NCBI GenBank assembly: GCA_016188175.1
Contig: JACPII010000002.1
Span: 55,379 to 87,378, forward strand
Reading direction: 5' to 3'
From: Candidatus Woesearchaeota archaeon
Lineage (GTDB): Archaea; Nanobdellota; Nanobdellia; Woesearchaeales; JACPBV01
Length of the DNA: 32,000 nt
Both the position numbers and the translations under genes were made by a program. The notes under the pieces are model-generated. The model was not told the origin of the DNA. It worked only from the letters and a program-made list of their open reading frames with translations, and made no database searches. Every line of letters begins with the position of its first letter. The stretch's first letter is position 1. Below are positions 3,069 to 27,538 of the stretch, piece after piece.

Positions 3069-3265
3069 TTTTCAACCTCAATGGCGAAATCGGGGCAGAA
3101 CTTTTCGCAGAGTTGGCACTTCGTGCACTTCCCCAACGACACGATCTCATTCCCTTTTATCATAAGGTCCTTCGCCGGGCAGATATAGACGCAGATAGAG
3201 CAGAGCTTGCAATATCCCTTGATCCAGGTAAGGGGCCCCCCGATTTTTTTCTTTTCAGCTTCCAT
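3065..3265 (-). CDS. korD: 2-oxoacid:ferredoxin oxidoreductase delta subunit (2x[4Fe-4S] ferredoxin)
   Basis: Two CxxCxxCxxxCP motifs (CKLCSICVYICP, CTKCQLCEKFCP). The ATG at 3265 (MEAEKKK...) is preferred over the track GTG at 3277, which lies inside the promoter repeat. Confidence 0.75.
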   Translation of the reverse strand: MEAEKKKIGGPLTWIKGYCKLCSICVYICPAKDLMIKGNEIVSLGKCTKCQLCEKFCPDFAIEVEK

Positions 3266-3332
3266 ATCAATAAACACTTGCGATAAATATCAATAAACAC
3301 TTGCGATAAATATCAATAAACACTTGCGATAA
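3264..3332 (-). repeat. Perfect 3 x 23-bp tandem repeat (unit on - strand TTATCGCAAGTGTTTATTGATAT) abutting the korD start codon
   Basis: Units 3264-3286, 3287-3309 and 3310-3332 are identical. Each carries AAGTG-TTTATTGA, which resembles the BRE/TATA seen elsewhere in the window (AAAAAGTTTATATA). The last AT of the proximal unit forms the korD ATG. Confidence 0.9.
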
Positions 3333-3439
3333 AGGCAAGCCCATCTGAAGGGCATAAACGGAGGTATTTAAACTTTTTCAATGAAAAAATCTTAATAAAA
3401 CCACAACCTTAATATACATTTTACCTCCCCCAGCGGATT

Positions 3440-5302
3440 ATGAGAATCCTCTTGCTGCACTCAGACTTTATCAAATTCCAGGCTGAAAAGCAGGCGATCA
3501 AAGACGCAGAAAAGATAGAAAAAGCAGAGCACGAGGTGCAGGAATGCCTCGTCGTCCTCACCTCTGTCGAAAAGAGAGACGAAAATAACCCCGATGCAGT
3601 GATCAAAAGATATGCGAAAGAGGTTGATGATGTCGCAAAGCAGGTTAAGGCTGACAAGATTGTCATCTACCCCTATGTCCATCTGACGACAGACCCTTCT
3701 TCCCCCCAGGCTGCCCTGCAAATCCTGAAATCGTGCGAAGAGGAGCTGAATAAGTCCTACAAAGTCACCCGGTCCCCTTTTGGATGGTACAAATCTTTTA
3801 CATTAGCCTGCAAAGGCCACCCATTAGCCGAACTTTCAAGGGAGTTTGGCCCTGAAGAAACAAAAGAAGATGAGTCCCAGGCATTGAAGTCAGAGAAAAA
3901 GCTCGTCTCAAGCTGGTTCATCCTCGACACCGAGGGAAAGCTCCACGACATCGGAAAGTTTAATTTCAAAGGCCACGACAACCTCAGGAAGTTTGCTTTC
4001 TACGAAAAGGACAAGGACAGGACGATGACCCAGGAGCCTGCCCATGTTCCCTTGATGAAAAAATTGGAAATTGCGGATTACGAGCCAGGCAGTGATTCGG
4101 GAAATATGCGCTATTATCCCAAAGGGAGGCTTATCAAATCCCTTCTGGAAACCTACATCACGGAAAAGGTCATCGATTACGGCGGGGTAGAAGTGGAAAC
4201 GCCCATCATGTATGACATGGCTCATCCGACGCTGTCAAAATACCTCCAGAGATTCCCCGCAAGGCAGTATAAGATTGAGTCGGACAAAAGAAACTTTTTT
4301 CTGAGGTTTGCAGCCTGCTTCGGCCAGTTCCTCATCGCCCACGACGCAACCTTGAGCTACAAAGACCTCCCCTTGAAGCTTTACGAGCTGACACGGTACA
4401 GTTTCCGAAGGGAACAAAGGGGCGAGCTTACCGGCTTGCGAAGATTGAGGGCGTTCACCATGCCCGACTGCCACGCTTTGGTCACCGGCCTCAACCAGGC
4501 AATAAGCGAATTCAAGCTCAGAAACAAGCTATGCTTCGATGTCCTTGAGAATGTCGGCATAAAAAAGGAGGATGTCGAACTTGCAGTCAGGGTGACGAAA
4601 GAATTTTATGAGAGCAACAAAGATATCGTCCTCGGCCTTGTAAAGGCGATCGGAAAGCCGGCTTTGGTGGAGATGTGGGACGAAAGGACATTCTATTTCA
4701 TCCTGAAATACGAGCTTAACTTTGTTGACAGCCTGGACAAAGCATCGGCATTAAGCACCGACCAGATAGACGTCGAGAACGGGGAACGGTATGACATCAA
4801 ATTCACCGACAAAGACGGCCAGAGAAAGCATCCATTGATACTTCACTGCTCCCCCTCGGGAGCTATTGAAAGGAATATCTATGCTCTGCTGGAAAAAGCT
4901 GCGATGCAGCAAAAGCAGGGAAAGACCCCCTCATTCCCCTTATGGCTGTCTCCGACCCAGGTAAGGATAATCCCTGTCACTTCAGAGTTCACCGCATTTG
5001 CAGGACAGTTCGTGGACGAGATCGCCAAAGAGAACATCAGGGTTGACATCGACGACCGGGAGCTTCACGTCGGCAAGAAAATCCGCGAAGCCGAGATGGA
5101 ATGGTGTTCCTTCATCCTGGTCATCGGAGAAAAAGAGAAGAACCTCCAAAAGCTCCCCATCAGGGTCAGAGGAAACAAAGACCTTGTGGAGATGGCCCTC
5201 AAAGACCTCATCGCCGAAATAAAAGAAAAGACTGCGGGCATGCCTTTCAAAAGATTGTCGCTGCCGAAAGAATTGAGCCGAAGGCCGGTGTTTGTCGGGT
5301 AG
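3440..5302 (+). CDS. thrS: Threonyl-tRNA synthetase, archaeal type with N-terminal DTD-like editing domain
   Basis: 620 aa. The N-terminus MRILLLHSDFIKF...IVIYPYVHL...PFGWYKSF is the archaeal ThrRS editing domain, followed by a class II core (FRREQRGEL.GLRRLRAFTMPD) and a C-terminal anticodon-binding domain. A TATA-like TTAATATACA lies about 27 nt upstream of the ATG. Confidence 0.9.
   Translation: MRILLLHSDFIKFQAEKQAIKDAEKIEKAEHEVQECLVVLTSVEKRDENNPDAVIKRYAKEVDDVAKQVKADKIVIYPYVHLTTDPSSPQAALQILKSCEEELNKSYKVTRSPFGWYKSFTLACKGHPLAELSREFGPEETKEDESQALKSEKKLVSSWFILDTEGKLHDIGKFNFKGHDNLRKFAFYEKDKDRTMTQEPAHVPLMKKLEIADYEPGSDSGNMRYYPKGRLIKSLLETYITEKVIDYGGVEVETPIMYDMAHPTLSKYLQRFPARQYKIESDKRNFFLRFAACFGQFLIAHDATLSYKDLPLKLYELTRYSFRREQRGELTGLRRLRAFTMPDCHALVTGLNQAISEFKLRNKLCFDVLENVGIKKEDVELAVRVTKEFYESNKDIVLGLVKAIGKPALVEMWDERTFYFILKYELNFVDSLDKASALSTDQIDVENGERYDIKFTDKDGQRKHPLILHCSPSGAIERNIYALLEKAAMQQKQGKTPSFPLWLSPTQVRIIPVTSEFTAFAGQFVDEIAKENIRVDIDDRELHVGKKIREAEMEWCSFILVIGEKEKNLQKLPIRVRGNKDLVEMALKDLIAEIKEKTAGMPFKRLSLPKELSRRPVFVG
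5273..5298 (+). repeat. Direct repeat copy A (last 26 nt of the thrS coding sequence before the final G and stop)
   Basis: TTGAGCCGAAGGCCGGTGTTTGTCGG matches 6411-6436 at 25 of 26 positions. Confidence 0.9.
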
Positions 5303-5344
5303 CTTGTTCTAATGAGACTAAGTAACATAAAGAAATGAGACTTA

Positions 5345-5358
5345 GTCACATATGTGAC
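5345..5358. promoter_or_regulatory. Perfect 14-bp palindrome GTCACATATGTGAC upstream of the cassette promoter (operator candidate)
   Basis: Perfect palindrome. The half-site AGTCACATA recurs at 5384-5392 on the other side of the TATA box. Confidence 0.45.
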
Positions 5359-5372
5359 CAGATACCAAAAAG

Positions 5373-5380
5373 TTTATATA
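5373..5380 (+). promoter_or_regulatory. BRE/TATA box (AAAAAG-TTTATATA) for a leaderless transcript starting at about ATG 5402
   Basis: TTTATATA is preceded by a purine-rich AAAAAG, and the ATG lies 22 nt after the box. The same 17-mer AAAAAGTTTATATACCC recurs at 18660-18676. Confidence 0.6.
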
Positions 5381-5401
5381 CCCAGTCACATAAACAAGCC
5401 T

Positions 5402-5806
5402 ATGAACATTGACGACCACCTTAAGGCATTCCAGGAACACAAAGAAGCCATCTTTGATTGGGCCATTGGTGTAAAGGGTATCCTGAACTCTCAAAGGATA
5501 ATAGGCCTGCATGCCTCGCGGGGAATTATTGAGCTCTTGTCTGCTTTCCTCCATGAAGAAGAAAAGATTACCAGCGGAGCCCAACTCAACCATCGGTGGT
5601 TTAAATCGAGAAAGTGCGGGGAAAGGTTGCCTGAATTTTCCAAGAAAGAAGTGATTACTCCCCAGCTCGTCGAGCTGGAACTGCTTTGTGAGGATCTGAC
5701 CTATGGGAAAAAGAAACCCCCTAAAGACATTGAAAGGGCAATCCGCCTGTTTAATGAGATAGAGAAGGAGATTTCAGAGCTGCGGGAGCACCATGAAAAA
5801 AAATGA
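5402..5806 (+). CDS. Small alpha-helical protein, possible HEPN-like partner of the adjacent nucleotidyltransferase
   Basis: Overlaps the MNT gene by 14 nt. It contains one Rx4H match (RIIGLH), but near the N-terminus rather than the usual position, so the HEPN call is tentative. The start was moved from 5354 to 5402 because the track start lies upstream of the TATA box. Confidence 0.4.
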   Translation: MNIDDHLKAFQEHKEAIFDWAIGVKGILNSQRIIGLHASRGIIELLSAFLHEEEKITSGAQLNHRWFKSRKCGERLPEFSKKEVITPQLVELELLCEDLTYGKKKPPKDIERAIRLFNEIEKEISELREHHEKK

Positions 5807-6407
5807 CCTTGTCGCGTATGCCTCAAGCTTCGCCTCCTTTCTCTTGAAAAGGCAGCAGCAAATAAGGCGAATCATTCTCTTCGGCTCCGTCGCAAGGGGT
5901 GATTTTGACAAAGAAAGCGATATTGACCTGTTTATTGAGACCGATGAGCCAAAAAACGAGATTCAGAACGTGCTGGAGTTGTATGAAAAATCCCAGGGCA
6001 GCAGGAACTTTAGGCTTGAAGGTATTGAAAACACCATCGTGCTTAAGGCAGGGAAGCTTGAAGAATGGCCTTCACTGAGGCGGAGCATGCAATCGGGAGG
6101 CATTGTGCTGTATGGGCCTTTTAATGAGCTTCCTGAAAAATTACAGCATTGCCTCCAGATAAGGATTGTTGCCGGAGCGAGGATAAGGAGTGAAAAGATT
6201 AAGCTCTGGAGATTAGTTTACGGCTACAATCAAAAAGTTGGAAAAAAGAGCTACAGGAGCCAGGGGATGGTAGGGAAGTGTGGGGGAAAAAAGATAGCTC
6301 CGGGAATATTTTTTGTTCCCATCGAAAACAGCTATGAGATAGAATCTTTTTTAAAAGAGAAGAAGATTGAGTTTAAAGCCACAGAAGTGTACATCCCTGC
6401 AATATGA
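5793..6407 (+). CDS. Minimal nucleotidyltransferase (MNT-type) with about 100-aa unassigned C-terminal extension
   Basis: ILFGSVARGDFDKESDIDLFIE is the GSxxRG...DxD Pol-beta-type NTase signature. Confidence 0.8.
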   Translation: MKKNDLVAYASSFASFLLKRQQQIRRIILFGSVARGDFDKESDIDLFIETDEPKNEIQNVLELYEKSQGSRNFRLEGIENTIVLKAGKLEEWPSLRRSMQSGGIVLYGPFNELPEKLQHCLQIRIVAGARIRSEKIKLWRLVYGYNQKVGKKSYRSQGMVGKCGGKKIAPGIFFVPIENSYEIESFLKEKKIEFKATEVYIPAI

Positions 6408-6410
6408 CGG

Positions 6411-6436
6411 TTGAGCAGAAGGCCGGTGTTTGTCGG
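6411..6436 (+). repeat. Direct repeat copy B (relic or duplicate of the thrS 3' end)
   Basis: TTGAGCAGAAGGCCGGTGTTTGTCGG followed by C-TGA reads LSRRPVFVG-stop, the same nine residues as the ThrRS C-terminus, with one synonymous change (CGA to AGA). Confidence 0.9.
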
Positions 6437-6444
6437 CTGAATAG

Positions 6445-6843
6445 TTATTTTCCCATAAACAATGCCCCTTCTTCGCCGCTAAAGTCAGAATCACAAGTGA
6501 GCACCTTCGCATGGTGGCTAAGACCAGTTGCAAATATGATTGCATCCCCCGTCCCCCACCCTTTCTCAAGCCTGAGAAGGGCGGCGTTCAAAGCGATATC
6601 CTCATTTACAGAGATGACAAAGCTCATTTTCCGGATAAAGTCAATAAACCTCTGGCAAGACGGCTCTTTCTTCTTGAGAAGATAATAATAAACTTCAGTA
6701 AGAGTAAGTGAGCTGATAAAAAGGCTTTGTTCCTTATCGAGAATCTCCTGGAGCTTTTTGCCGGTTGCGCTCCCCCGCAAAAGCTCAATCCACATGCAGG
6801 AGTCAACAACGATGGACCCAATCATCAATTGTTCTTTTTCCAT
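6445..6843 (-). CDS. vapC: PIN-domain ribonuclease toxin VapC
   Basis: The four acidic PIN residues are in context (VVDS, LTEV, GDAIIFAT, CDSDF). It overlaps the upstream antitoxin gene by 19 nt. Confidence 0.85.
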   Translation of the reverse strand: MEKEQLMIGSIVVDSCMWIELLRGSATGKKLQEILDKEQSLFISSLTLTEVYYYLLKKKEPSCQRFIDFIRKMSFVISVNEDIALNAALLRLEKGWGTGDAIIFATGLSHHAKVLTCDSDFSGEEGALFMGK

Positions 6844-7040
6844 TTGGTTTCAAGCCGGTCAAATTCTTCTCTTTTAAACGGCCCCAGCCCTTTTGCAGTT
6901 CCGAAGAAGTTTTCCTTCGGCCGCTTTAACTCACGGACAAGCTTCTGCATGAGCTGGTCGAAGGATTCTGATGCAGTCTCCTCTTTGGCATATTTGAGCA
7001 TCCTATAAGTTTCTTCACTGACAGCAATCGTTGTTGACAT
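6825..7040 (-). CDS. vapB: VapB-type antitoxin
   Basis: 71 aa, MSTTIAVSEETYRMLKYAKE..., immediately upstream of and overlapping vapC. Confidence 0.7.
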   Translation of the reverse strand: MSTTIAVSEETYRMLKYAKEETASESFDQLMQKLVRELKRPKENFFGTAKGLGPFKREEFDRLETKWKKNN

Positions 7041-7145
7041 TTATATCACCATAAGTTATAAACATATATCTTATATTTAAATCTTTCGCTAAGGAAGAGC
7101 AATATCAAGAAAACTCTTAAAAACACCCCCTTAACCATCATCGTT

Positions 7146-8498
7146 ATGGTCCTCTCAAAGCTGTCCGATTCCCTTAAGAACACCTTAAGCAAGATAGCCC
7201 AAGCCATCTTTGTGGATGACAAGCTCCTCAACGAGCTCGTCAAAGACCTTCAAAGGGCCCTTCTTCAGGCAGATGTCAACGTGAAGCTCGTTTTTGACCT
7301 CACCAACAGCATCAGGGACCGGATAAAGAAAGAAGAGGCTCCTAAAGGGCTGACGAAGAAAGAGCAGCTCATCAATACCGTCTACGAAGAGCTGGTGAAA
7401 TTCCTCGGTAAAGAGCAATACAAGCTCGATATAGCCAAAAAGCCATTCCTCATCATGCTTGTCGGCCTTTACGGCTCGGGAAAGACAACCTCATCGGGAA
7501 AGTTAGCATCGTACTTCACCAAGAGGGGCCACAAAGTTGCCATCGTCGGGCTGGATGTCCACCGGCCGGCTGCGATGGACCAGGTTGAGCAGGTCGCAAA
7601 AAAAGTAAATGTTGTTTCCTTTACCGACAAAAAAGAAAAAAGCCCCATTGCCCTTTGGAACAGGTTTAAGGAAGATTTGAGAAAATATGATGTTGTCCTG
7701 ATTGACACGGCAGGAAGAGATGCCTTAAGCGATGATCTCATCGCTGAGATAGAGTCCCTCAACAATATCATCCAGCCCGATGAAAAATTCCTCGTCATCT
7801 CCGCAGATATCGGCCAGGCAGCCCAAAAACAGGCAGAAGAATTCCATCGATCGTGTGCCATCACCGGAGTCATCGTCACCAAGATGGATGGGACGGCAAA
7901 GGCCGGTGGAGCTTTGTCAGCCTGCGCGATCACCAAAGCCCCGATCGTCTTTATTGGAGTCGGTGAAAAGCCGGACGACCTTGAGCATTTTAACCCACCC
8001 GGATTTGTCGGCAGGCTCCTCGGAATGGGAGACATTGAAGCGCTTCTCGAGAAAGCCAAAGAAGCGATAACCGAAGAAGATGCAGAAGACCTCAGCAAGC
8101 GGCTCCTGAAAGGCGAATTTACCCTCATCGACCTTTTTGAGCAGATGGAAGCGATGTCCAAGATGGGTCCCTTAGACAAGATCATGGAGATGATACCCGG
8201 GTTCAGCCAGATCAAGCTGCCCAAGGAAATGCTTCAGGTCCAGCAGGGAAAGCTCGAAAAATGGAAGCACGCCATGCAGTCGATGACAAAATCGGAGTTG
8301 GAGTCGCCAGACGAGATGATCGACAGCGATAGGATTGAGCGCATCGCAAAAGGCTCGGGAGTTTCGTTAAGCGACATCCGCCTGCTCATCAAGCAATACC
8401 GTGAAGGCAGGAAGATGGTCAGGATGCTCAAAGGCACCGGCGGAGATACAAACAAGATAATGAAAAAGCTGCAGGGCAGGATGCCCAAGATGTTCTAA
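7146..8498 (+). CDS. srp54: Signal recognition particle protein SRP54
   Basis: N domain, G domain (GLYGSGKTTSSGKLA, DTAGR, TKMDG) and a Met-rich M domain. Confidence 0.95.
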   Translation: MVLSKLSDSLKNTLSKIAQAIFVDDKLLNELVKDLQRALLQADVNVKLVFDLTNSIRDRIKKEEAPKGLTKKEQLINTVYEELVKFLGKEQYKLDIAKKPFLIMLVGLYGSGKTTSSGKLASYFTKRGHKVAIVGLDVHRPAAMDQVEQVAKKVNVVSFTDKKEKSPIALWNRFKEDLRKYDVVLIDTAGRDALSDDLIAEIESLNNIIQPDEKFLVISADIGQAAQKQAEEFHRSCAITGVIVTKMDGTAKAGGALSACAITKAPIVFIGVGEKPDDLEHFNPPGFVGRLLGMGDIEALLEKAKEAITEEDAEDLSKRLLKGEFTLIDLFEQMEAMSKMGPLDKIMEMIPGFSQIKLPKEMLQVQQGKLEKWKHAMQSMTKSELESPDEMIDSDRIERIAKGSGVSLSDIRLLIKQYREGRKMVRMLKGTGGDTNKIMKKLQGRMPKMF

Positions 8499-15538: not shown

Positions 15539-15672
15539 AAACCCATTAAAGGAAAAAGGTCAATAAAAATGTTATGGCAGTAAACCACGTAAAAGTGTAT
15601 GTTCGGAAAACTCAAAAATCACAACATTTATTAAACGGGAAACAATGTTTTCTATGAAAAAAGAGGTTGAGG

Positions 15673-18072
15673 ATGGACAAAGCCCATAAGTATATTCTTT
15701 GGTTTGACGAGATAGGAATCCATGACGTTCCCTATGTAGGTGGAAAAAACGCCTCATTGGGAGAGATGTACAACGCCTTGAGGAAGAAAGGCATCAGGAT
15801 CCCTGACGGTTTTGCGGTTACCGCCGCCGGGTATCGCTTTTTCCTCGAAGAAGAGGGAATAAAAACAAGGCTGTTTGAAATCCTCAAGCGCATCAATCCC
15901 CGCAGCGTCGAAAGCCTCACCGCCCGCGGCAATGAAGCACGCCAGCTTTTTCTCCACGCAGATATTCCTCCTGCACTCCGCATGCTGATTCTCAGCGCCT
16001 ATCGGAAGCTCTGCCAGAGATATGGCCCAAATACTGATGTCGCCGTAAGGAGCTCTGCAACGGCTGAAGACCTACCGGGCGCAAGTTTTGCCGGCCAGCA
16101 GGACACGTTTCTCAACATCAGGGGTGAGACTGCCCTCTTAGACGCGTGCAGGCGGTGTTTTGCATCCTTGTACACTAACCGGGCAATCCACTACCGCCTC
16201 GACAAGGGGTTCGACCACGAGAAAGTTTCCCTCTCCATCGGCATCCAAAAGATGGTGAGGAGCGACCTTGCATCCTCAGGAGTGATGTTCTCCATCGACA
16301 CAGAAACCGGATTTAAGGATGTTATCCTTATCAATGGGATTTGGGGCATGGGGGAGAACATAGTCCAGGGAAAAGTCAACCCCGATGAATGGTATGTGCA
16401 CAAGCCGACCCTCCAGAAGGGGTTCAAGCCGATCATCAGCCGGATCCTCGGCGACAAAAAGCTGAAGCTGGTCTATGCTCACGAAGGGACAAAAGCATCG
16501 ACGAAAAACATTGAGACGACCGATCATGAAAGCCATTCTTTTGTCCTCACCAGCGAGGAAGTCCTAACCCTCGCAAGATGGGCATGCAGCATCGAGCAAT
16601 ACTACAGGATGCCCATGGACATTGAGTGGGCAAAGGACGGCCTCACCGGCCATCTGTATATCGTCCAGGCGAGGCCGGAAACCATCCAGAGCCAAAAAAA
16701 TCCCCACATCCTTGAGGAATTTCGCCTTTTAGACCGCGGAAAAATCCTCGCCAAAGGGAGAAGCGTCGGGTCGAAAATCGGGCAGGGAAGAGTCCAGGTC
16801 ATCCGTTCAGCCCACGAGATGGGCTCTTTTAAGGACGGAAATGTGCTTGTCACCGATATGACTGACCCGGACTGGGAGCCGATCATAAAGATCGCTTCCG
16901 CCATCGTCACCAACAAAGGCGGGAAGACCTGCCACGCCGCCATCATCTCCCGCGAGCTTGGCATCCCCTGCGTCGTGGGAACTCTCAACGCAACAGAAGC
17001 ATTGCGGAATAACCAAAAAGTTACCATCAGCTGCGCCGAAGGGGAAGAAGGATTTGCCTATGAAGGATATCTCAAATACAAGATTTTTCACCACAACCTT
17101 GCAAACCTTCCAAAAACCCACACCAAGCTCATGGTTAACGTAGGCAACCCGGAACAGGCGCTCGAGCTGAGCTTTCTGCCGACGGAAGGCGTTGGCCTTG
17201 CCCGCCAGGAATTTATCATAAGCCAGTACATCAAGATCCACCCTAATGCGCTCATCTCTTTTTCCGAGATTACAAACAGGAATGTTAAGGAAGCGATCGA
17301 AAAGCTGACGATAGGTTTCAAAGACAAGACCTCATTTTATATCGAAAGGCTTGCCGAGGGCATTGCAACCATTGGAGCTGCATTCTACCCTAAAGATGTC
17401 ATTGTCCGTTTCTCCGACTTCAAAAGCAACGAATACGCAAACCTTATCGGAGGAACGCTGTTTGAGCCGCTGGAAAGCAATCCGATGATTGGGTGGAGGG
17501 GAGCCTCCCGCTATTACTCAAAAGAGTACAGGGATTCATTCGCCCTCGAATGCAAAGCGCTGAAAAAAGTCAGGGACGAGATGGGCCTGCAGAATGTCAA
17601 GGTGATGATACCTTTTTGCAGGACCGTCGAAGAGGGCTCCCTCGTCTTAAAAGAGATGGCAAAGCACGGCCTCATCAGGGGAAAAAAAGGCCTCCAGGTG
17701 TATGTGATGTGCGAAATCCCCTCCAACGTTATCCTTGCAGACCAATTCTCCGAGCTGTTTGATGGATTCAGCATCGGCACGAACGACCTTACCCAATTGA
17801 CGCTGGGATTAGACCGGGACTCCGCATTGGTCAACCATCTGTATGATGAGGGCAACGATGCAGTAAAAACCCTGGTCGCAACCGCAATCAGCAAAGCAAA
17901 AGCCCGCGGAAAGAAAATAGGCATCTGCGGGGAAGCAGGAGCCAACCCCGAATTCGCAAAATTCCTCGTCTCTTGCGGGATTGATTCGATATCGGTGCCT
18001 CCGGATGCTGTGCTTCCAACGTTGCTCTCTATCGGCGAAGCCGAGCGCGCCATCCGGACAAAAAGAAGGTAA
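15673..18072 (+). CDS. ppsA: Phosphoenolpyruvate synthase (pyruvate, water dikinase)
   Basis: About 800 aa, with VGGKNASLGEM, the phosphohistidine swivel motif GGKTCHAAIISRELGIPCVVG, and a C-terminal PEP-utilising TIM domain. The ATG at 15673 behind GAGGTTGAGG is preferred to the track TTG at 15667. Confidence 0.95.
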   Translation: MDKAHKYILWFDEIGIHDVPYVGGKNASLGEMYNALRKKGIRIPDGFAVTAAGYRFFLEEEGIKTRLFEILKRINPRSVESLTARGNEARQLFLHADIPPALRMLILSAYRKLCQRYGPNTDVAVRSSATAEDLPGASFAGQQDTFLNIRGETALLDACRRCFASLYTNRAIHYRLDKGFDHEKVSLSIGIQKMVRSDLASSGVMFSIDTETGFKDVILINGIWGMGENIVQGKVNPDEWYVHKPTLQKGFKPIISRILGDKKLKLVYAHEGTKASTKNIETTDHESHSFVLTSEEVLTLARWACSIEQYYRMPMDIEWAKDGLTGHLYIVQARPETIQSQKNPHILEEFRLLDRGKILAKGRSVGSKIGQGRVQVIRSAHEMGSFKDGNVLVTDMTDPDWEPIIKIASAIVTNKGGKTCHAAIISRELGIPCVVGTLNATEALRNNQKVTISCAEGEEGFAYEGYLKYKIFHHNLANLPKTHTKLMVNVGNPEQALELSFLPTEGVGLARQEFIISQYIKIHPNALISFSEITNRNVKEAIEKLTIGFKDKTSFYIERLAEGIATIGAAFYPKDVIVRFSDFKSNEYANLIGGTLFEPLESNPMIGWRGASRYYSKEYRDSFALECKALKKVRDEMGLQNVKVMIPFCRTVEEGSLVLKEMAKHGLIRGKKGLQVYVMCEIPSNVILADQFSELFDGFSIGTNDLTQLTLGLDRDSALVNHLYDEGNDAVKTLVATAISKAKARGKKIGICGEAGANPEFAKFLVSCGIDSISVPPDAVLPTLLSIGEAERAIRTKRR

Positions 18073-18083
18073 GGGAACAGCCC

Positions 18084-18482
18084 ATGAAGCGTATCATTCT
18101 TGACACAAACACCTTGTTGATCCCGAGCCAATGCAGGGTTGACATCTTTTCAGAGCTTGAAAGAGTATGCCTCTTTCCCTTCGAGGTTTTTACCATCAGC
18201 CAGGCCATAAAAGAGCTGGGCATCATCCTAGGTTCAGGAAAAGGAAAAGACCACAGGGCGGCGGCATTGGCGATCGCGATGGTCAAAAGGAGCAATATCG
18301 GGATAGCCGATTCTCCGCCATCCCTCGATGCAGATAAGGCGCTCCTTGCTGTCGGAAAAGAAAAAGATACGATTATTGCAACCCAGGACCAAGAGCTCAA
18401 GCGGATGTTAAAAAAGCAGGGAACTCCCGTAATCACGTTAAGGTCAAAAAAATATTTTATTCTCCTGAACGCCCCTTGGTGA
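18084..18482 (+). CDS. PIN-domain protein, Fcf1/COG1412-like
   Basis: IILDTNTLL at the N-terminus and IIATQDQELKRMLKKQGTPVITLR at the C-terminus, as in archaeal Fcf1-like PIN proteins. No adjacent antitoxin. Confidence 0.6.
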   Translation: MKRIILDTNTLLIPSQCRVDIFSELERVCLFPFEVFTISQAIKELGIILGSGKGKDHRAAALAIAMVKRSNIGIADSPPSLDADKALLAVGKEKDTIIATQDQELKRMLKKQGTPVITLRSKKYFILLNAPW

Positions 18483-26085: not shown

Positions 26086-26808
26086 ATGCAATTAAGCAAA
26101 CTTGAATCACAAGCCGACGAAGCGCTGAAGAAAAACAATCTTGCTATTTTCACGGCTAAAGACCTGATGCTGCTGCTTGGAATTAAACGGATGAAAGCAT
26201 ACAACCTCGCAAAAGCGCTCAAGCGGAAAGGCGCTGTCAATGCTGTAAAAGGCGGCATGTTTGCGTTGGCAGGCACCAATGAGCTTTCTTTTGGCCAGCA
26301 TCTTAACTGGCCTTCTTACCTGAGCTTTTGGTCTGCGTTGAGCTATTACGGATATTCAGACCAGATGCCTAGGACGCTCTTTTACGCATCAGTCAAATAC
26401 ATGAAAAAAAGAGCGAACTGCCAATTCGTTGCATTGTCCAATAAAAGATTCTTTGGCTACACCAGCATAGGGAGCATCACAATCGCAGAGAAAGAGAAAG
26501 CCTTCGTCGATTCATTGTTGTTTCCCAAATATGCCGGCGGCATGAATGAGATAAGCAGATGCCTGAAAAATGCATTGAAGGATATTGACATAAAAAAGAT
26601 GGCCAGCTATGCTGAAAAGGTGGGGAACAAAGCGGTGTTGCGCAGGCTTGGGTTTTTATTGGAAATTACCGGCATTGATAGCAGCCTCCTATCTGGATTA
26701 AAAAAGGGCATAGGCAGCGGATACGAGCGCATTGATCCCTCGCTTCCAAAAAGGAATCATTTTAATAAGGAATGGCTCCTGGACGTCAACGATGATATCG
26801 CTCACTGA
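26086..26808 (+). CDS. AbiEi-family antitoxin / wHTH transcriptional regulator
   Basis: The N-terminus (FTAKDLMLLLGIKRMKAYNLAKALKRKGAVNAVKGGMFAL) looks like a winged helix. The size and the 17-nt overlap with a downstream DUF1814 NTase gene are typical of AbiE modules. Confidence 0.7.
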   Translation: MQLSKLESQADEALKKNNLAIFTAKDLMLLLGIKRMKAYNLAKALKRKGAVNAVKGGMFALAGTNELSFGQHLNWPSYLSFWSALSYYGYSDQMPRTLFYASVKYMKKRANCQFVALSNKRFFGYTSIGSITIAEKEKAFVDSLLFPKYAGGMNEISRCLKNALKDIDIKKMASYAEKVGNKAVLRRLGFLLEITGIDSSLLSGLKKGIGSGYERIDPSLPKRNHFNKEWLLDVNDDIAH

Positions 26809-27538
26809 GCTTAGCGAGTTAAAGAACAGGCGGAAAACCAATCTTTATTACGAAGAGAAGGAATATCTCCAGTATATTTTCCTTCATGCATTATCAGGAT
26901 TTCCGAATAGGTTTGTATTTAAGGGAGGGACCTGCCTGAGGATATGCTATGGGCTTGAGCGGGCATCAGAAGACCTGGATTTCAGCACCACTGCCTCTTT
27001 GGCTGAAGTCAGAAAAATTGTTTCCCTATGCCTGAAGGATTTTGAACTGCTTAACATTAAACACGGGGTTTCCGGAGAAAAAGAGCATCAGGGAAATCTT
27101 CGGATAGAAGTGCGTTTTGAAGGCCCTTTATTTTCAGGAACTCAGGCATCAACAAACACCTTAAAGGTTGATTTTAATAAAACCCATGTTAAACAAAAAG
27201 TTGCAAAAGTTGTTCCCCAGATTTTCTCAGATATTCCAGCATTTACTATCTTTGCCATCGATGAAACGGAGATACTTGCAGAAAAGATAAGGGCTCTGGC
27301 GAACAGGAGCGAATCAAGAGACTTGTATGATGTGTGGATGCTGTTGAGCAAAGGTGTCATAATTGACAGAAAATTGCTGGATGCAAAGCTTAAGGAAGAG
27401 CATAGCAGCCTCAAAAATCTCAAGGTGCCCATCAAACAGGCATACGAGAGAGACCTGAAAGGCCTGCTGCTTTTCCTTCCGCCTTATGTACAAGTCAAGG
27501 AAGAAGTGCTTAATGGGATTTTGAAAGGTATAAATTAA
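26792..27538 (+). CDS. AbiEii/AbiGii-family nucleotidyltransferase toxin (DUF1814)
   Basis: FKGGTCLRICYGLERASEDLDF matches the family signature. The Met at 26792 is preferred to the track start at 26732. Confidence 0.75.
   Translation: MISLTELSELKNRRKTNLYYEEKEYLQYIFLHALSGFPNRFVFKGGTCLRICYGLERASEDLDFSTTASLAEVRKIVSLCLKDFELLNIKHGVSGEKEHQGNLRIEVRFEGPLFSGTQASTNTLKVDFNKTHVKQKVAKVVPQIFSDIPAFTIFAIDETEILAEKIRALANRSESRDLYDVWMLLSKGVIIDRKLLDAKLKEEHSSLKNLKVPIKQAYERDLKGLLLFLPPYVQVKEEVLNGILKGIN

Follow-up and report, generated by a model that had tools for sequence, protein, structure and literature searches.

In a 32,000-nucleotide (nt) stretch of the genome of a Candidatus Woesearchaeota archaeon (GenBank assembly GCA_016188175.1, contig JACPII010000002.1, positions 55,379 to 87,378 of the forward strand; hereafter, the window), the 3' end of thrS, the gene for threonyl-tRNA synthetase (ThrRS), is present twice, on either side of a 1,112-bp segment that carries two genes (5299-6410, plus strand). 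The 26-bp repeat is probably the remnant of a long target duplication that arose when this cassette of about 1.1 kb, encoding a HEPN-like protein and an MNT-type nucleotidyltransferase (NTase), was inserted at the thrS end. As judged from comparison of its loci, the cassette family as a whole appears to insert with a long target duplication of variable length (17-120 nt).

The target gene, thrS, is intact (3440-5302, plus strand) and encodes an archaeal-type ThrRS of 620 amino acids (aa) with the Pfam domains tRNA-Thr_ED (1.1e-48), tRNA-synt_2b and HGTP_anticodon. Its last 26 coding bases before the final G, TTGAGCCGAAGGCCGGTGTTTGTCGG, occupy positions 5273-5298 on the plus strand (copy A, the working 3' end, i.e. 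the last 9 codons, with the stop codon TAG at 5300-5302) and recur at 6411-6436 on the same strand (copy B, the displaced duplicate) with 25/26 nt identical, the sole mismatch being C5279 vs. A6417. Copy B reads TTG AGC AGA AGG CCG GTG TTT GTC GGC TGA, i.e. LSRRPVFVG (6411-6437) followed by a stop codon (6438-6440), so that the codon differences between the copies are CGA/AGA, GGG/GGC and TAG/TGA, with the peptide and the stop kept in all three. The first-pass annotation of this DNA had described the in-frame duplication with its single change, and the description is borne out by four assemblies: among Logan assemblies of separate sequencing runs, two contigs span both copies with the spacing unchanged, and copy B is present on two further, shorter contigs. 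Because the structure is reproduced by independent assemblies, it is not an assembly artefact, and the duplicated thrS end flanking the cassette is confirmed as real. Two matches to the 26-mer were obtained in none of the dinucleotide shuffles (0/100), and the pair is the second-ranked direct-repeat family (D2) within positions 4800-7300.

Across 81 thrS loci, the thrS end was duplicated only in the window, L001, L004 and L007, with L152 added later. L001 (ThrRS 91% identical to that of the window) contains a DNA homologue of the cassette 3' of thrS, with 73.5% identity to the window, and L004 (68%) likewise has a cassette homologue at this place. Each is bracketed by the end of its own thrS, with 31/31 nt in L001, where the repeat extends 11 nt beyond the stop codon, and 25/26 nt in L004, where V-G-stop is then re-encoded with other codons. 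In L152 (72%), a distant cassette, with proteins 32% and 37% identical to the two of the window, is located at the thrS end and is flanked by an exact 23-nt repeat ending at the stop codon; its operator motif differs from that of the window. Copy B matches lineage-specific residues of its own thrS (R/K and V/I; V/A in L152), and the boundaries of the repeat differ among these four thrS loci. The cassettes of the window, L001 and L004 form one clade together with that of L082, which is located at a corA-like gene and has no repeat, and the three thrS-linked cassettes of this clade share the left junction (stop codon, ~9 nt, cassette head). The first-pass annotation had made a discrete insertion depend on two points, namely that copy B accompanies the cassette in related genomes and that the 26-mer is not a widespread repeat; copy B is kept in 4/4 thrS-linked cassette loci, and the 26-mer was found only at thrS ends.

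Cassette-free relatives (L066, L002, L003, L153 and others) have a single thrS end followed by different downstream DNA. L066 and L001 are 94.5-95.4% identical in thrS and ffh, with the cassette in L001 only, and L153, the ThrRS of which is 87% identical to that of L152, has no cassette. In the cassette-free relatives, ffh is found near thrS with variable content between the two genes, and the thrS-ffh spacer is different in every genome examined. The ThrRS C-terminus, LS[KR]RP[IV]FVG followed by a stop, is kept in most of the closest relatives, with a few single-residue variants, and any tolerated insertion must therefore leave it intact. The window ThrRS is 91-92% identical to the ThrRS of two groundwater Woesearchaeota metagenome-assembled genomes, and none closer than 91% was present in a collection of 5.8 billion proteins.

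Other features of the thrS loci were recorded along with these comparisons. L007 has a cassette-free thrS with two stacked ends (7849-7947; LSKRPIFVG plus stop, twice), separated by 35 nt; they differ at 7 codons, always synonymously, and have different stop codons, and the arrangement resembles either a gene end swapped for that of a diverged allele or a scar remaining from an insertion since lost. In L001, 159 nt of filler (7873-8031) that is absent in the window and L004 separates thrS copy A from the cassette head. Within this filler, which may be a small secondary insertion, are two short inverted repeats able to form hairpins (CCCCTCGGAGGGG; GTGGACAA...TTGTCCAC). An IS110-family transposase gene is located upstream of thrS in L153 (413-1399) and L154 (1036-2022) and is absent in the co-linear L155; this presence/absence in one population is ordinary insertion sequence (IS) polymorphism, unrelated to the cassette. 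In L158, a LAGLIDADG_3 gene directly follows ffh.

A metagenome scan with the small HEPN-like protein identified 47 loci, in which both genes were paired wherever the contig was long enough; among these 47, thrS adjoins the cassette only in the copy of L004. Cassettes that are 82-88% DNA-identical are found in unrelated flanks (L099/L114, L100/L117, L084/L085, L100/L109 and L114/L115), and their homology is limited to 1.05-1.12 kb, with the left edge 63-132 nt upstream of the first ATG and the right edge 5-22 nt past the NTase protein match, at or within ~20 nt of the stop codon. Because related copies stand in unrelated flanks with homology confined to the cassette, these alignments indicate that the cassette is a discrete unit that has moved, as the first-pass annotation had proposed for the self-contained segment between the two copies. 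The inserts run exactly from head to stop codon in L116, L128, L004, L100 and L152; others have unrelated filler of 14-160 nt on one side or both, and the filler between repeat and cassette in L001, L093, L100 and L109 had no match in the other sequences compared.

The absence of an integrase, which the first-pass annotation had also remarked on, extends beyond the cassette: no integrase or transposase was detected in the cassette or in the 32-kb window (Pfam, essentially all open reading frames (ORFs) of at least 100 aa), and no integrase was detected in the inspected flanks of related loci. The cassette family was not found in IMG/VR (alignments of both proteins) or in plasmid and phage collections (tblastn), and it has no terminal inverted repeats, no junction motif and no fixed duplication length. 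Junctions overlap with the NTase stop codon by 2 nt, occasionally more (by eye), which was judged compatible with chance. Two established types of mobile DNA were considered and rejected: an integron gene cassette, as there is no attC-like conserved 3' element and no intI, and the cassette has its own promoter; and a DNA transposon, IS or miniature inverted-repeat transposable element, as the motifs are confined to the head with no matching tail, there are no terminal inverted repeats and the duplication measures 17-120 nt.

Two additional insertions were observed at cassette loci. L095 (2015-2509) and L099 have in common the DNA ligase gene and a cassette, the cassettes being 93% identical, and L095 contains an extra ~500 nt (a 151-aa ORF) between the ligase stop codon and the cassette head, i.e. 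a small insertion at the same gene end. In L088 (3360-4290; also in L086), the NTase gene of the cassette itself has a nested insertion of ~820 nt at its 3' end, with two minus-strand ORFs in a layout like that of a putative toxin-antitoxin (TA) pair. A duplicated stretch of 30 nt from the NTase end flanks this insertion, and a further 50-nt repeat brackets the whole.

When the flanks of the cassettes were compared at 35 distinct loci with at least 400 nt on each side, a direct repeat between the two flanks with a score of at least 22, the cut-off, was identified in 12 (12/35; repeats of 22-120 nt), vs. none among 390 random 1-kb pseudo-cassettes taken from DNA of the same kind (0/390; maximum score, 21). 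The repeats are locus-specific and derive from that locus's own target, so their sequences differ at every locus; their lengths are 31, 41, 46, 48, 55, 65, ~110 and ~120 nt, and the others measure 17-29 nt. The sources are the 3' ends of at least 8 other genes (one of them convergent), the 5' end of a downstream gene and intergenic DNA. Thus, the repeated 3' ends belong to the genes for a KaiC-like ATPase in L085 (~120 nt), deoxyhypusine synthase in L116 (48 nt), GatB in L111 (46 nt), an Obg-like GTPase in L100 (42 nt), a convergent phosphoenolpyruvate (PEP) synthase in L092 (65 nt) and an unknown gene in L093 (55/55 nt), and the repeat of L088 likewise comes from an unknown gene. In L128, the repeat (40/41 nt) covers the start codon of the downstream gene together with its first 11 codons, in L121 (~110 nt), it comes from the 5' end of the downstream gene, and in L142 (65 + 23 nt, with 64/65 nt identical in the longer part), from intergenic DNA. 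Shorter or weaker repeats were found in L109, L113, L117 and L083. The variation of the repeats in sequence, length and target therefore argues for a variable target duplication rather than a conserved attachment (att) core.

In a general survey, the repeats of L009 proved to be tandem paralogues and those of L084 and L099 simple tandem duplications, all unrelated to the cassette. In L085 (4777-4892 vs. 5997-6112), the upstream, working copy of the KaiC-like gene end has an extra A in an A-run and is frameshifted (ending in ...KHQKKNCCCYYF and a stop), and the downstream relic still has the full conserved C-terminus in frame; the extra A could be either a homopolymer assembly error or an indication that the relic is the better copy.

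These observations could be accommodated by the following scenario. A cassette-bearing DNA fragment would be joined to the chromosome by a process that is not site-specific, for which widely staggered, filled-in breaks or template switching during repair or replication are candidates, and host repair would produce the long direct repeats. In the compact genomes of DPANN archaea, selection would retain only insertions at gene ends. The neighbouring gene stays intact because the duplications that persist span the gene terminus; in the window, copy A finishes thrS. The re-encoding of the ThrRS C-terminus by copy B would follow from the tolerance of insertions in short spacers only, because duplications of 20-120 nt there would almost always include the terminus of a gene; the second copy would be in frame simply because the duplicated stretch is the gene end. 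Later homologous recombination at the repeats could delete the cassette precisely, or the copies could be kept alike by gene conversion, and in later transfer to related genomes, the left and right arms could be provided by thrS and copy B, respectively. In the window, the duplication probably once extended into the first ~13 nt of the insert (GTAGCTTGTTCTA) and has eroded there, as suggested by comparison with the L001 flank TAGCTATTTCTT, which there is present after both copies.

Several observations weigh against insertion with long target duplication as a sufficient account. About two thirds of the family loci have no detectable repeat, and that of the window, at 26 nt (25/26), is below the published cut-off of 30 bp, although, given the L001 flank, it could originally have been ~39 nt. 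The comparison of thrS loci called for by the first-pass annotation supplied cassette-free relatives with a single thrS end, but an exact empty site, i.e. the same two flanks with a single copy, was not found for the window or for any young insertion; in the search for it, all contigs with an identical VapC (encoded next to the cassette) that reach past vapC carried the cassette. Because no exact empty site was found, we infer the target duplication from the architecture rather than observing it directly. The differences between the copies are also not those of a simple duplication: ~30 are synonymous (4 of them stop-to-stop) vs. ~13 non-synonymous (~70% synonymous; three hand corrections are included, one for the frame in which L085 is read and two for tails in L113 and L117 that are not homologous), compared to ~40% synonymous expected for an in-place duplication with constraint on copy A and drift of copy B. 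All differences between copies A and B are synonymous in the window and L004, where the stop codons are of different types. Furthermore, at five loci (the window, L004, L100, L113 and L117), the copies cease to be identical in DNA ahead of the stop codon, yet both still arrive at an in-frame stop only a few codons further on; in three of the five (the window, L004 and L100), the encoded residues are unchanged or almost unchanged beyond the end of DNA identity. This persistence of coding past DNA identity points to additional recombination of an allele type, which probably contributes at gene ends, to judge by the copies; L100 contains a third, older copy of the gene end. Finally, the two copies are near-identical within each genome of the thrS clade, yet the cassettes of the window and L001 have diverged by ~26%. 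Were the insertion older than the divergence of the window from L001, ~5-7 differences from copy A would be expected in a neutral copy B, compared to 1 observed in the window and 0 in L001; the near-identity of the copies despite the diverged cassettes therefore requires gene conversion or repeated re-insertion.

The sum of these differences points to ongoing homologous recombination at the repeats, in the form of gene conversion, allelic end replacement or re-insertion of the unit, and this leads to the alternative that survives best, although we hold it only tentatively as an explanation in its own right: homing combined with concerted evolution, whereby the unit consisting of the gene end A, the cassette and copy B would spread between related genomes by homologous recombination. 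The housekeeping gene would provide the left arm and copy B a right arm that is independent of the downstream context, with recombination between A and B either excising the cassette or homogenising the copies. The thrS-ffh spacer being otherwise hypervariable, only copy B could be the right arm. Such spread is consistent with the single clade and common left junction of the window, L001 and L004 cassettes, in which copy B nonetheless mirrors the residues of its own thrS, with the choice of conserved housekeeping genes as targets, with cassette presence/absence between ~95% identical genomes and with the synonymous bias. However, 23-40 nt of homology is very little for RadA-type recombination, the thrS 3' region shows no detectable mosaic tract and the colonisation of new targets is not accounted for. 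Homing complements insertion with long target duplication, explaining persistence and not the first insertion, and we rank recombination at the repeats as a complementary process rather than as the origin of the duplication.

A site-specific element appears improbable. The thrS 3' end would be its att site, at which a tyrosine or serine recombinase acting in trans would integrate a circular cassette with its own thrS end; that copy A is element-derived and copy B the displaced native end, as this requires, is no more probable. This account is difficult to reconcile with the unrelated repeats of 17-120 nt at other family loci, including 5' ends and intergenic DNA, with the lack of a core motif common to the junctions and the varying repeat boundaries at the four thrS loci, and with the lack of a recombinase in the cassette or the window, even though the thrS end has been struck at least 2 times by distantly related cassettes and the repeat begins within a few nt of AAGGCCGG in L001 and L152. 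It would also fit the all-synonymous A/B differences and differing stop types of the window and L004, the stacked thrS ends of L007 (7 synonymous, 0 non-synonymous) and the third, older gene-end copy of L100. The first-pass annotation had proposed an element of this type, specialised on thrS and carrying a replacement end, which is too narrow for a family in which the repeats differ in sequence, length and target; the synonymous bias and the stacked ends of L007 lend some support to the replacement-end idea.

Another possibility that we regard as having little chance of being correct is an autonomous element, in which the HEPN-like protein and the polymerase beta-type NTase would bind the head repeats and catalyse or trigger insertion, making the cassette a minimal transposon of a new enzymatic class. 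The sharp ends, with the most compact inserts running exactly from head to stop codon (L116, L128, L004, L100 and L152), would be expected of such an element, as would three conserved, putatively protein-binding repeats at one end only, a pair that is always complete where the contig allows, a conserved extra C-terminal domain in the NTase and no other mobility gene nearby. However, the two proteins match in fold a well-studied TA pair that acts through RNA cleavage and protein AMPylation, the lengths of the repeats range over a factor of seven, which is unlike any known transposase, several insertions have 14-160 nt of filler at either end, and the head repeats are most simply a promoter and operator. 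If true, this would be transposition without a DDE, tyrosine, serine or HUH enzyme and would also explain the long-unsolved 'insertion with long target duplication' of addiction modules. That the repeat is a chance similarity or an assembly artefact is practically out of the question, nothing except its shortness (26 nt) being in favour of it, compared to the 0/100 shuffles, the reproduction of an imperfect repeat by independent assemblies, the 0/390 random controls and the like architecture at a further three thrS loci and at over 10 other targets.

The cassette itself begins with a head (5317-5393, plus strand) that contains operator-like motifs at 5317-5329, 5340-5352 and 5382-5393. The first two, ACTAAGTAACATA and ACTTAGTCACATA, are direct copies, and a motif search yielded 2 matches vs. 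0.05 expected; the feature that the first-pass annotation had described as a hairpin (5311-5352) is better described as these two copies, whereas the palindrome and the TATA-like box it reported were recovered. The palindrome, GTCACATATGTGAC (5345-5358), is formed by the middle motif, and the archaeal TATA-like box, TTTATATA, is located at 5373-5380. Alignment of the upstream regions showed three copies of TTTATATACTTAGTNACATA in the conserved head, the middle one palindromic; the three-part head is kept upstream of nearly all family members and conservation stops ~100 nt before the ATG. No sequence is conserved 3' of the NTase stop codon in the family alignment.

The first gene (5402-5806, plus strand) encodes a HEPN-like four-helix protein of 134 aa, a putative toxin. 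It had no match in Pfam, NCBIfam or PADLOC, and no HEPN sequence model matches it. Its AlphaFold2 model is a helical bundle (pLDDT 95), for which the best functional folds in the PDB are HEPN proteins: 2hsb (prob 0.95, TM 0.57-0.60), with an E-value of 0.6 that makes the match weak, and further 2q00, 1wwp, 1jog and 6m6u. Among 67 homologues, Q31 and R32 are invariant and H37 is kept in at least 90%, forming an Rx4H motif (RIIGLH), which is not visible by eye in the small protein of the L152 subfamily. The second gene (5793-6407, plus strand), which overlaps the first by 14 nt, encodes an MNT-type NTase of 204 aa, a putative antitoxin (Pfam NTP_transf_2, 2.4e-12; Polbeta, 6.7e-11), with the invariant residues G31, S32, D43 and D45 of the MNT GS...DxD motif. 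In Foldseek searches, its N-terminal domain matched the MNT antitoxins 8xeh and 8xeo (E 5e-5, prob 1.00), 7bxo (E ~3e-4) and HI0073. The score against the NCBIfam model NF047752 (MntA_antitoxin) is 32.1 bits, below the cut-off of 60, with residues 18-65 alone matching, and the extra C-terminal alpha/beta domain (approximately residues 115-204) is conserved and has no clear relative. Because of the MNT fold, the HEPN-like fold with its Rx4H motif and the overlapping operon with a palindromic operator, the pair is most likely a type VII-like TA module that would be autoregulated via the operator. Copy B is in the frame of the NTase ORF, with the NTase stop codon and one further codon between them; a read-through fusion of the NTase with the nonapeptide was rejected, as copy B is in the NTase frame in the window and not in L004 or L001.

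Beyond copy B, in the variable thrS-ffh spacer, lies on the minus strand (6445-7040) a separate TA pair that does not belong to the cassette, vapC (6445-6843; Pfam PIN, 2.5e-17) and vapB (6825-7040; VAPB_antitox, 9.4e-7), which has no flanking repeat of its own. The next gene, ffh (SRP54; 7146-8498, plus strand), is a conserved right-hand neighbour, with synteny in L001, L002, L004, L066, L153, L156 and L158. Counting the cassette and vapBC, the window contains four TA-type loci, the other two being a PIN_9-domain gene (18084-18482), 11 nt after the stop codon of the PEP synthase gene (15667-18072), and an AbiEi-like/AbiEii pair (26086-27538; type IV TA, with a nucleotidyltransferase toxin); no repeat flanks the former and no direct repeats flank the latter. 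In L090, L092, L094 and L127, a HEPN-like/MNT cassette is located at the 3' end of the PEP synthase gene. Upstream of thrS, at 3264-3333, a perfect tandem repeat of 3 copies of the 23-nt ATATCAATAAACACTTGCGATAA occupies the divergent intergenic region between thrS and the ferredoxin/2-oxoacid oxidoreductase genes (minus strand) and may have a regulatory role. Neither Rfam nor tRNA scanning of the window gave any match.

Long target duplication was reported 25 years ago in restriction-modification (R-M) systems; it was never explained, the known cases being scattered single events. The present data add one 1.1-kb two-gene family with that signature at 15 or more independent sites, in another domain of life and with another addiction module. 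As the element is compact, with two proteins and many natural junctions, the mechanism is experimentally approachable. For the TA modules of DPANN archaea, the implied mode of movement would be as units extending from promoter to stop codon onto the termini of housekeeping genes, without damage to these. For annotation, short in-frame gene-end relics 3' of such cassettes would be insertion scars and not genes.

Integrative elements at gene 3' ends (in tRNA genes as well as guaA and rpsI) restore the gene with an element-borne copy, and cis-mobilisable elements (CIMEs) keep attL and attR without an integrase. Similarly, in the window, a direct repeat of the gene end brackets the insert and the gene is functional, and CIMEs also lack a recombinase of their own; however, those elements have one conserved att core and a cognate recombinase, whereas the cassette repeats vary and no recombinase is seen. 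Mobile endonuclease ORFs of fungal mitochondria supply a substitute C-terminal coding end, and the native one persists downstream as a relic. The duplicated end, the mainly synonymous differences and the relic are shared with the cassettes and recall L007, L100 and the synonymous bias, whereas the fungal ORFs encode a homing endonuclease with one target, and the cassettes have many targets and no recognisable DNA endonuclease.

The type VII HEPN-MNT (HepT/MntA) modules resemble the cassette in their overlapping two-gene operon, in the NTase N-terminal domain, which superposes on 8xeh, 8xeo, 7bxo and 6m6u, in the small four-helix partner with HEPN proteins as nearest folds and an Rx4H motif, and in the palindromic operator at the promoter. 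The cassette differs by its reversed gene order, with the HEPN-like gene first, by the extra NTase C-terminal domain of ~90 aa, by a small protein that matches no HEPN sequence model and has its Rx4H in the N-terminal half, and by an MntA score of 32 vs. the 60-bit cut-off.

The closest parallel for the insertion is 'insertion with long target duplication' of R-M complexes (Nobusato et al. 2000, Gene 259:99; Furuta, Abe & Kobayashi 2010, NAR 38:2428, PMC2853133), where the repeats are variable and long, mobility genes are lacking, a start or stop codon frequently lies within the repeat and no other mobile element takes part (PMC2853133). As defined by Furuta et al., the flanking direct repeats exceed 30 bp, the insert is under 20 kb without a mobility gene, and the repeat is not dispersed and occurs as a single copy where a related genome has the corresponding empty site (PMC2853133). 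The window insert, 1,112 bp with two genes of which neither is a recombinase, conforms with regard to insert size, lack of a mobility gene and a non-dispersed repeat. No archaeal case was found by Furuta et al. (PMC2853133), and we found no report in the literature of long target duplication for TA cassettes, archaea or DPANN archaea. In both systems, a small addiction-type complex is flanked by variable, target-derived repeats that often span a start or stop codon and leave the gene intact, there is no integrase, transposase or inverted repeat, and presence/absence varies between close relatives. The cargo in the window is a HEPN-like/MNT TA-type pair, its hosts are DPANN archaea and the family repeats, at 17-120 nt, extend below 30 bp; because the cargo is not an R-M system, the proposed trigger, a DNA double-strand break made by the restriction enzyme, is not obviously available. 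A further difference from the R-M cases is that here one cassette family, with sharp ends, is found at no fewer than 15 sites.

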